This document shows positions 36,443 through 37,850 of a stretch of DNA of 64,000 bases, one piece after another. The position numbers were made by a program, and so were the translations under genes. A model generated the notes under the pieces. The model saw only the letters and a list, made by a program, of their open reading frames with translations, was not told the DNA's origin and ran no database searches. Where the stretch lies: assembly GCA_040768125.1 (NCBI GenBank), contig JAXGNG010000001.1:1095318-1159317 (forward strand). The letters run 5' to 3'. Numbering within the stretch: position 1 is the stretch's first letter; each line of letters starts with the position of its first letter. The DNA is from Spirochaetota bacterium. Lineage in GTDB: Bacteria; Spirochaetota; UBA4802; UBA5550.

Positions 36443-37644
36443 GTCTGTAGTTTATGGAAAACAAGAAATATCAACGCGCCGATGGCCCCTGTGACATATA
36501 CGGGCAATGAGAGTTTCAGTTCCCGCCTCACCCCGGAGGGTCCCGTATAGGTGGAGGCGCCGGTGAACTGAAGGGCCAGGTATGATGACAGAAGGGGGAA
36601 GATGATAAGCGCCGAGATCCTGTACGTGAATGATTCGCCGCTCAGAGACGTGGCCAGGACAAGGGGCGCGATCGCCGCGGCCCCGACGAGCCACCCCTTG
36701 AGGGCGAAGGACCTGAAGGGGATGAAGGGGAGGAGGGCCGGGGTTACGATGGCGCCGGTCCCAATCGCCGTGAACAGAAATAGAATGTAGGCGCGGCCCT
36801 CGTTCCATGCGGCCGCGAAGAGTATTCCATGGGGCTGGAGGCCGAAGAATGCGAGGATCGCCAGTGAGGCGATGACCCCGTATTTCACCGATTGACGGAA
36901 CTCCATGGGCGTGAGGACCAGGCGGTCGGCGAGGCCGAACCGCACCCGGCGCATCGGGGGATCTGCGCGATAGCCGTTGTCCACGTAGGAGATGATGTCC
37001 CCGGCGTCAACCGGACCGAAATATACCTTGAATCCGGTCGCGCGCTTCACCTCTGACGCCCTGACGCCGGGGGCGCCGAGCTGGGGCACGATGATACGCC
37101 GGTGGGAGATCCGCTCCGCGAGCCGGACATCCCTGATGCGGTGTACCAGTTCCGCCGTGCCGAAGGTCCCCTTCCCCGCGGCGCACCATACGTTGATTCC
37201 CTTCGTGTCGAGGACCAGTATCCATGCGCTGATTGTGCCGAGGGCGCGCCGGAGAATGTCGAAGCTCAGCTTGTAGTTCGCCGAAACGAACACATCCGAC
37301 GTGGAGTCAGGATCGCCGAGGGCGTAGAGACCCGGAGAGACATCATACTTCATCCGGAAGGAACCGGTACGGGCGCGAATGTGTCCCCACCGGTCAGTGG
37401 CGGTCCACTCATGAGTGACCCTGCGGACACTATCACTCCCCGAGACAGCGTGCACGGGCCCGCGGCCCGGAGCAAGAAGGGCGCGCGCCGCCTCGTGGAG
37501 GGTCCCGGGGTCTGGTGAGGCGAGGCCGGTGGCCGGTGTCAGCGTTTTACCGGTGCTGGATGATAATAATGCTTGTCTCTGGCGTGACGGGTTCTGTTCC
37601 ATTTGATTCCGCTGTCGTTTCTTTGATATTTGGCTAATTAGCAA
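36427..37644 (-). CDS. hgcA: HgcA, corrinoid protein of the mercury-methylation pair (CFeSP-like domain + C-terminal TM domain)
   Basis: Diagnostic cap-helix motif GINVWCAAGKGTFG (N[V/I]WCA[A/G]GK); upstream GLYALGDPDSTSDVFVSANYKLSFDILRR matches HgcA; 4-5 C-terminal TM helices. Start uncertain: track uses TTG 37644; likely shorter, with ATG 37602 or GTG ~37455 as alternatives. Confidence 0.85.
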   Translation of the reverse strand: MLISQISKKRQRNQMEQNPSRQRQALLSSSTGKTLTPATGLASPDPGTLHEAARALLAPGRGPVHAVSGSDSVRRVTHEWTATDRWGHIRARTGSFRMKYDVSPGLYALGDPDSTSDVFVSANYKLSFDILRRALGTISAWILVLDTKGINVWCAAGKGTFGTAELVHRIRDVRLAERISHRRIIVPQLGAPGVRASEVKRATGFKVYFGPVDAGDIISYVDNGYRADPPMRRVRFGLADRLVLTPMEFRQSVKYGVIASLAILAFFGLQPHGILFAAAWNEGRAYILFLFTAIGTGAIVTPALLPFIPFRSFALKGWLVGAAAIAPLVLATSLSGESFTYRISALIIFPLLSSYLALQFTGASTYTGPSGVRRELKLSLPVYVTGAIGALIFLVFHKLQTWGLP

Positions 37645-37682
37645 AATAGCAAATATATGTCAAGAAAATTTTGGCCGCAAGG

Positions 37683-37698
37683 ATTGACCCGTGTCAAT
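37683..37698. promoter_or_regulatory. CRP/FNR-family (FNR/Dnr/HcpR-type) binding site ATTGACccgtGTCAAT, class-II position for the flavodiiron gene
   Basis: Perfect palindrome TTGAC-N4-GTCAA centred at 37690.5. A -10 hexamer TATATT at 37720-37725 puts the predicted TSS near 37732, so the site centre is at -41.5. It lies in the AT-rich divergent region between hgcA (-) and the FDP gene (+). Confidence 0.5.
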
Positions 37699-37850
37699 GC
37701 CATTATGGATATAGTTCAGTATATTGTGATAGACAGCAATCCCTTGGTTCGTGCGCACAAAGGAGACACGCTGTTCGATCCAACCGGAAGATCGGGCGGA
37801 GGTGGGCATGGCAATCATTCGGAAAAAAAATGATAGAATGGAGGTAGTTC

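Follow-up and report, generated by a model that had tools for sequence, protein, structure and literature searches.

What does a perfect palindrome do when it lies between two divergent genes, one of them a mercury (Hg) methylation gene and the other a gene for the response to nitrosative and oxidative stress? The question is raised by a locus of an uncultured member of the Spirochaetota (GTDB lineage UBA4802; UBA5550; assembly GCA_040768125.1), in which hgcA and a gene for a flavodiiron protein (FDP) are transcribed away from a shared intergenic region. The DNA analysed, called the window below, comprises 64,000 nucleotides of contig JAXGNG010000001.1 (positions 1,095,318 to 1,159,317 of the forward strand), and positions are counted from its first letter. 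We propose, with a probability of roughly two in three, that the palindrome (site B) is an operator of the HcpR1/DNR type from which the FDP gene is activated in class-II fashion, and that hgcAB, arsR and the arsenic-resistance (ars) genes behind them are under a separate promoter and candidate operator (element A), the latter likely bound by ArsR. The class-II CRP/FNR-type reading of the FDP promoter had been put forward in a first-pass annotation made from the window alone. It is well supported by comparative sequence evidence, namely by conservation, by promoter geometry, by the function of the target genes and by the company that the motif keeps in other genomes.

Site B has two arms, TTGAC and GTCAA, separated by four bases. 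With the flanking A and T it takes a 16-bp form (ATTGACccgtGTCAAT = ATTGACCCGTGTCAAT; positions 37683-37698), and both this sequence and the TATATT hexamer at 37720-37725 lie exactly where the first-pass annotation had placed them. The shared region was also rightly described as AT-rich, with 37-43% GC against 60-75% in the flanks. The exact motif TTGAC-N4-GTCAA occurs once in the window, against a mean of 0.03 expected from shuffled sequences. Since 3 of 100 shuffles contained at least one copy, it might be thought that the palindrome arose by chance, and its rarity in a single window is indeed only suggestive on its own. Matches with up to one or up to two mismatches were not above chance in the window, those with up to two mismatches being fewer than expected, so that the window appears to hold no second site or regulon member. 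A scan of positions 37400-37950 against Rfam gave no match; the conservation described below is therefore not explained by a known RNA element.

What makes site B convincing is the comparison between loci rather than the statistic for one window. A scan with the FDP protein, in which each species was represented by one genome, returned 80 loci with 863 kb in all. The closest of these came from metagenome-assembled genomes (MAGs) of uncultured Spirochaetota ('Leptospirales'), and seven of them (L001-L007) together with the window make up the eight spirochaete loci considered here. A further locus, L114, was 100% identical to L004 and was not counted as independent. FDP identity to the window is 94% in L001, 84% in L002 and 74-78% in L003-L007, and HgcA identity ranges from 55 to 83% across loci. 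Within the 863 kb the perfect motif was found nine times, always at the same promoter position: once in each of L001-L007 and twice in L025, a deltaproteobacterial MAG with an FDP that shares 69% identity with that of the window. With the copy in the window this gives ten sites. The ten specified bases are invariant in all eight spirochaete loci, the arm columns being identical in 8/8 loci against a mean of 4.6/8 elsewhere. The spacer reads CCGT, CCGG, ACAA, GCAA or AGAA in these loci, and their flanks cannot be aligned. A chance origin is excluded because the arms are perfect in all eight loci while the four bases between them vary. The first-pass annotation had made its interpretation depend on the palindrome being kept upstream of FDP orthologues, and throughout the spirochaete loci of this clade it is kept.

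The second line of evidence is the position of the site with respect to the predicted promoter. In all ten cases a -10-like hexamer begins on the plus strand exactly 22 nt past the site. The spirochaete loci have TATATT, TAGATT, TATTAT, TATAAT, TATAAT, TATTAT, TATTAA and TATTTA at this place; L025 has TATTAA and TACGGT. In the window 29.5 bp separate the centre of the palindrome (37690.5) from the start of the -10 hexamer, which places the centre at -41.5, as the earlier arithmetic had it, with respect to a transcription start site (TSS) predicted from the -10 at approximately 37732. The predicted leader has a length of about 119 nt, and a GGAGG stands ahead of the ATG of the FDP gene. A promoter scanner independently picked out ATGCCA-17-TATATT on the plus strand of the window. 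In most relatives the -35 region reads ATGACn, also 17 nt from the -10, and TGA(C) after GTCAA is kept in seven of the eight loci. Within the predicted leader of the window there is also a 14-bp near-palindrome (TTCGTGCGCACAAA, 37748-37761), which is not conserved in L001 or L002.

TTGAC is also the consensus of a -35 hexamer, and the two arms could in principle be the -35 hexamers (TTGACn in either orientation) of two divergent promoters standing back to back. The promoter scanner does give a minus-strand TTGACA-18-CAAAAT that starts in the right arm. A minus-strand promoter with the right arm as -35 is not conserved, since the -10 at that spacing matches in only one to four of six positions in the ten sites; on the plus strand, 30 nt separate the left arm from the -10, too many for the arm to serve as its -35. 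We therefore reject the back-to-back arrangement, and an explanation of the palindrome by either these hexamers or chance is extremely improbable.

The genes behind the site tell a consistent story. In the window, L001, L002 and L007 the plus-strand gene that follows the site is the FDP gene. In L003, L004 and L005 it encodes a 187-aa hemerythrin-HHE protein with weak similarity to YtfE/RIC/DnrN, and the FDP gene lies about 0.9-2 kb further on. In these seven of the eight loci hgcA is present upstream of the site and divergent from it. L006, where the hemerythrin-HHE gene is again followed by the FDP gene, possesses neither hgcA nor arsR, yet the site is retained before the hemerythrin gene. 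In other words, the site travels with the stress genes and not with hgcA. The FDP of the window scored 701.9 bits (cut-off 635) against the NCBIfam equivalog NF008887, 'anaerobic nitric oxide reductase flavorubredoxin'. In L025 one perfect site is located between a ferredoxin/NIR_SIR-FDP operon and a divergent gene with cNMP_binding and HTH_Crp_2 domains, 22 nt before TATTAA, and the second precedes hcp, 22 nt before TACGGT. All of these targets, that is FDP and hemerythrin-HHE genes in the spirochaetes and hcp and the ferredoxin-FDP operon in L025, belong to the set of genes for nitric oxide (NO) and O2 stress.

Which regulator would bind such a site? The palindrome of the window matches the HcpR1 motif wyTTGACnnnnGTCAArw, which was predicted for Geobacter, Desulfuromonas, Desulfotalea and two cyanobacteria in a regulon study that was itself comparative (Rodionov et al. 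2005, PMC1274295). Hemerythrin-like genes are listed there among the members of the HcpR1 regulon, and the change from a CRP-like to an FNR-like motif was tied to the replacement of Arg180 of CRP by Ser or Pro (PMC1274295). Metagenomic contigs scanned for TTGAC-N4-GTCAATGAC-N18-TA yielded at least 120 loci. Among the matches listed, approximately 26 of 120 contained a CRP/FNR gene, mostly directly adjoining the motif. The recognition helices of these regulators mostly read T[VI]PE[TA][LF]SR, with Pro at the position of R180, and the proteins contained 0-3 scattered cysteines and no N-terminal cysteine cluster of the FNR type. The genes that follow these listed sites include those for hemerythrins, a NirK-like copper protein, a globin and multihaem cytochromes, and T is enriched (55/110) at the sixth position of the -10, in the part left unconstrained by the search.

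The first-pass annotation had assigned the site to the FNR/Dnr/HcpR kind. Its CRP/FNR-type character and the HcpR1/DNR part of this assignment stand, the motif being the HcpR1 consensus, and FNR proper becomes improbable. An O2-sensing FNR is unlikely, since all these sites have C at the place of a T in the FNR box. The C at arm position 5, together with the cysteine-poor PE--SR regulators beside the motif elsewhere, favours an NO sensor of the HcpR/DNR kind over FNR, and the predicted regulator of site B is probably HcpR1/DNR-like and NO-responsive. Haem-based sensing has been proposed for HcpR1 of Desulfovibrio (PMC5701242).

Two observations on the metagenomic contigs may be added. In seven of them (L087, L090, L108, L111, L142, L178 and L194) the site is followed by a gene for a multi-pass membrane protein of about 356-509 aa (mostly 487-509), which had no match in Pfam or NCBIfam and may be an uncharacterised member of the NO-stress regulon; five of the seven (L087, L090, L111, L178 and L194) also carry an HcpR-like gene in the locus. 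L175, in which a hemerythrin gene is followed by one for a protein with a cNMP domain, was considered as an autoregulated hcpR operon and rejected, as the second protein has no recognisable helix-turn-helix (HTH).

Several points weigh against the activator proposed for the FDP promoter. More distant spirochaete FDP orthologues (L008, L013-L016, L018, L022, L023 and others) are without the site, which limits the link to the regulon to this clade. Neither the 64-kb window nor the DNA up to 6 kb from the site in L001-L008 yielded a CRP/FNR gene, whether searched by phmmer with CRP and FNR of Escherichia coli or with a family hidden Markov model built from 26 CRP/FNR open reading frames (ORFs) of the fetched loci. 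The only matches were insignificant ones to the winged helix of ArsR, and the regulator is thus not encoded nearby. HcpR2 of the Treponema denticola type, which is the form reported for spirochaetes, has a different motif, GTAAC-N4-GTTAC (PMC1274295). The promoters of L003 and L004 are near consensus (ATGACT or ATGACA, 17 nt, TATAAT), so that an activator may not be needed there and a repressor might be favoured; HcpR2 of Desulfovibrio desulfuricans has been described as a repressor of hcp that is inactivated, and so released, by NO (PMC5701242).

From the second of these points it could be argued that the protein binding the palindrome does not belong to the CRP/FNR family and is, for example, some other HTH dimer whose gene lies elsewhere in the genome. 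This is very unlikely in view of the identity of the motif with the published HcpR1 consensus, of its strong co-occurrence with CRP/FNR genes next to it, both in L025 and in the metagenomic contigs mentioned above, and of its placement at -41.5, which is typical of the CRP/FNR family. The ArsR linked to hgcAB is no candidate either, because the site is retained in L006, where arsR and hgcA are both missing.

The near-consensus promoters of L003 and L004 and the case of HcpR2 of D. desulfuricans would suit an operator for a repressor, or a dual-function one, at which a dimer covering -48 to -35 would keep RNA polymerase out until it is removed by NO or O2 damage. We regard this as unlikely. Class-II activation is favoured because the spacing of 22 nt is constant to the base pair in all ten sites and across two phyla, which fits a face-specific contact with the polymerase rather than simple occlusion, and because the promoters of L025 are almost without a -35 (one of six matches), as is typical of activator-dependent promoters. 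Moreover, the site overlaps the -35 hexamer by 1 bp only.

Because hgcA is divergent from the site in most loci, it is natural to ask whether site B also acts on hgcA. The first-pass annotation had suggested that it could, from a centre near -45.5 with respect to an hgcA -10 at 37652-37657 (TATATT on the minus strand), and that expression of the Hg methylation genes would in this way be tied to a regulator responding to anaerobiosis or NO. Neither suggestion is supported by the comparison. This -10 is not conserved in related loci, the matching hexamers in the other six hgcA loci not being -10-like, and L006 keeps the site without hgcA. All seven hgcA loci share a different hgcA promoter, described below. 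Between its -35 and the palindrome lie 19 bp in the window, L001 and L002, 27 bp in L007, 89 bp in L004, 200 bp in L005 and 286 bp in L003, placing the centre of site B at -62.5, -70.5, -132.5, -243.5 and -329.5, respectively, of the predicted hgcA TSS. These positions have no common helical phase. The larger spacing in L003 is due to approximately 250 bp of extra DNA (4600-4850 of that locus) with C-run/G-run hairpins resembling repetitive extragenic palindromes (REP) or miniature inverted-repeat transposable elements (MITE), which lies between the hgcA promoter and the palindrome.

A weaker form of the idea is that site B is bidirectional and also modulates the hgcAB promoter from about -62.5, in a class-I-like manner, in the window, L001 and L002. 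Class-I positions of CRP are -61.5 and -71.5, and the centres in these three loci and in L007 fall within 1 bp of them; L002 has retained the 19-bp gap despite divergence of the gap's sequence, and hgcA is divergent from the site in all loci save one. The positions in L004, L005 and L003 are out of phase, however, and the site persists where hgcA is missing. The hgcA promoter also has a conserved predicted operator of its own and a linked arsR gene. The gap shared by the window, L001 and L002 is weak evidence, given how closely the three are related, and we consider a bidirectional site distinctly unlikely. The same improbability attaches to its extension, in which the intergenic region is a two-input switch with ArsR repressing hgcAB-arsR-ars at the -10 repeat and a factor of the HcpR type modulating the promoter from about -62.5 in these three loci. 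If it were true, the Hg methylation genes would respond to metalloids as well as to nitrosative and oxidative stress.

The promoter that hgcA has of its own is contained in element A. In the window it consists of a -35 hexamer TTGACA (37663..37658), a spacer of 17 nt and a TGn-TAATTA -10 (hexamer at 37640..37635). An inverted repeat, TATTTGGC-N6-GCAAAATA (37627-37648), straddles the predicted -10. The consensus of the repeat over the -10 in the hgcA loci is TATTT(T/G)GC-N6-GCCAAATA, and an additional direct copy of the left arm is found in the spacer. The hgcA -10 is TATATT in L003, L004, L005 and L007, and TAATTA, TAAATG or CAAATG, each after TGn, in the window, L001 and L002. For L003 the promoter scanner independently returned TTGACG-17-TATATT. 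Element A is unique in the window, where 0.07 copies are expected. With up to three mismatches the repeat is present in every hgcA locus of the clade. With at most one mismatch it was found, in 1.58 Mb of fetched DNA, at these hgcA promoters, the only other match being one unrelated sequence in three near-identical contigs. The hgcA promoter bears on the extent of the intergenic region, which is 248 bp rather than the 206 bp first given, because the TTG at 37644 falls within this conserved promoter and the conserved start of hgcA is the ATG at 37602. From this ATG M[E/K]QN is encoded in the window and L001.

Downstream of element A, hgcA, hgcB, arsR, a permease gene, a gene for an ArsE-like thioredoxin and ACR3 follow head-to-tail on the minus strand (31785-37602), with an ArsC-like gene further on. 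Since arsR begins only 13 nt past hgcB, hgcAB would seem to form the front part of an operon for arsenic resistance. The ArsR protein is 77-78% identical in L003-L005 and has a conserved CCPC motif and a C-terminal CCGI. Operons of the ArsR/SmtB family are classically autoregulated in that they include the gene of their ArsR repressor and have an inverted repeat across the -10. Here, likewise, the repeat of element A overlaps the promoter of an operon that encodes an ArsR-family protein, and it is most likely the operator of this linked repressor. The features of the locus are collected in Table 1.

Table 1. Predicted features of the hgcA-FDP intergenic region and of the adjoining genes (window coordinates)
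Feature	Position	Strand	Remarks
Flavodiiron protein (FDP) gene	37851..39038	+	395 aa; metallo-beta-lactamase-like and flavodoxin domains (Pfam); predicted target of site B
-10 of FDP promoter (predicted), TATATT	37720..37725	+	promoter scanner match; TAnnn[T/A] at 22 nt in 10/10 sites
-35 region of FDP promoter, ATGCCA	37697..37702	+	promoter scanner; abuts right arm of site B, 1-bp overlap
Site B, TTGAC-ccgt-GTCAA	37684..37697	.	perfect 14-bp inverted repeat (5-4-5); predicted CRP/FNR-family dimer site, HcpR1/DNR type
Element A, predicted hgcA promoter and candidate operator	37625..37664	-	same architecture in 7/7 hgcA loci; separate from site B
hgcA	36427..37602	-	corrinoid protein, NVWCAAGK motif; NF040863 392.5 bits, cut-off 275; divergent from FDP gene
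hgcB	36146..36442	-	ferredoxin with two [4Fe-4S] clusters; NF040864 119.2 bits, cut-off 99
arsR	35785..36132	-	ArsR-family metalloregulator; HTH_5; NF033788 80.1 bits, cut-off 55

Some further observations concern these genes. The ars cluster of the window is interrupted between ACR3 and the ArsC-like gene by an ORF of 132 aa (32367-32765, minus strand), whose product resembles a PIN/VapC-type toxin by eye. In L022, a Leptospiraceae MAG, arsR (whose product also ends in CCGI) precedes hgcA on the same strand (1-740 of that locus). Its promoter has a different inverted repeat, ATATCGTA-N4-TACGATAT, after a TTGACT -35, and carries neither element A nor TTGAC-N4-GTCAA. The hgcA gene of L005 (2931-4125) is split over two reading frames, which indicates either a pseudogene or an error in a long-read assembly. 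Near its start HgcA has CC(A/T)P or CCC in L003 (approximately 4480-4509), L004 (about 3200-3234), L005 (about 4070-4101) and L007 (about 5790-5822); in the window, L001 and L002 the protein has instead an unrelated, cysteine-free N-terminal extension of about 60 residues.

Taken as a whole, the palindrome is an ordinary but well-preserved case of a known regulatory device. The prediction would extend the regulon of the HcpR1-type motif to an uncultured lineage of the Spirochaetota and would name FDP and hemerythrin genes as direct targets there. The prediction of an hgcAB promoter and operator is a by-product, and perhaps the more useful result, as the regulation of hgcAB is poorly understood. 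It delimits an hgcAB promoter that is independent of the FNR-type site and that can be tied to a particular inverted repeat across its -10 as well as to an arsR gene apparently co-transcribed with hgcAB, and it offers a concrete candidate operator for the ArsR control that has been proposed for Hg methylation genes. The independence of this promoter argues against the site on the FDP side as an O2/NO switch for Hg methylation.

The mechanism that we envisage is as follows. A dimeric CRP/FNR-family regulator of the HcpR1/DNR type, with a recognition helix expected to be of the PE--SR kind, would bind the palindrome at 37684-37697. Its sensor would probably be haem-based and NO-responsive, rather than an O2-labile Fe-S cluster. 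From its position at -41.5 the regulator would act as a class-II activator in contact with RNA polymerase and turn on the gene for the FDP, an NO/O2 reductase, under nitrosative or oxidative stress; in the sister genomes the same site would drive the hemerythrin gene upstream of the FDP gene. Site B would be dedicated to the promoter on the FDP side, and the divergent hgcAB-arsR-ars operon would be driven from element A, most likely under repression by the ArsR-family protein encoded just past hgcB.

How does this arrangement compare with known systems? The class-II box of Escherichia coli FNR and Pseudomonas DNR is TTGAT-N4-ATCAA, centred at -41.5 and overlapping the -35 region. Site B shares with such promoters the 5-4-5 inverted repeat and, with respect to the predicted TSS, the placement at -41.5 with an overlap of the -35 region. 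It differs from the FNR box in having C/G instead of T/A at arm position 5, in all eight spirochaete loci and in both sites of L025. The regulators found beside the motif elsewhere differ from FNR in the lack of an N-terminal cysteine cluster, so that O2 sensing via a [4Fe-4S] cluster is unlikely.

The resemblance to the HcpR1 systems of Geobacter, Desulfuromonas, Desulfotalea and cyanobacteria is closer (PMC1274295). The consensus is the same, the targets are likewise genes of nitrosative stress (hcp, ferredoxin-like and hemerythrin-like genes), and Pro at the position of R180 of CRP is common to the HcpR1 regulators and to those adjoining the motif in L025 and the metagenomes. Unlike these systems, the present one belongs to an uncultured member of the Spirochaetota, its direct target is an FDP or hemerythrin gene instead of hcp, and there is no hcpR within 64 kb. 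HcpR2 of T. denticola, Bacteroides and clostridia is also a CRP/FNR regulator of NO-stress genes and has been reported in a spirochaete, but its motif is found upstream of hcp, the only member of the reported regulon, and has the half-site GTAAC in place of TTGAC (PMC1274295).

For element A, as opposed to the palindrome, the comparison is with Pseudodesulfovibrio mercurii ND132, for which ArsR-like control of hgcAB has been reported (bioRxiv 10.1101/2022.10.17.512643; see also PMC7438021). The words 'operator', 'promoter', 'palindrome' and 'inverted repeat' do not occur in the text of the former report. In both organisms hgcAB shares its locus, and apparently its transcript, with an ArsR/SmtB gene, and genes for arsenic resistance lie next to it. 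The two differ in the order of the genes, arsR preceding hgcA in P. mercurii and following hgcB in the spirochaete, and for the latter a candidate operator can now be named, in the inverted repeat over the hgcA -10.

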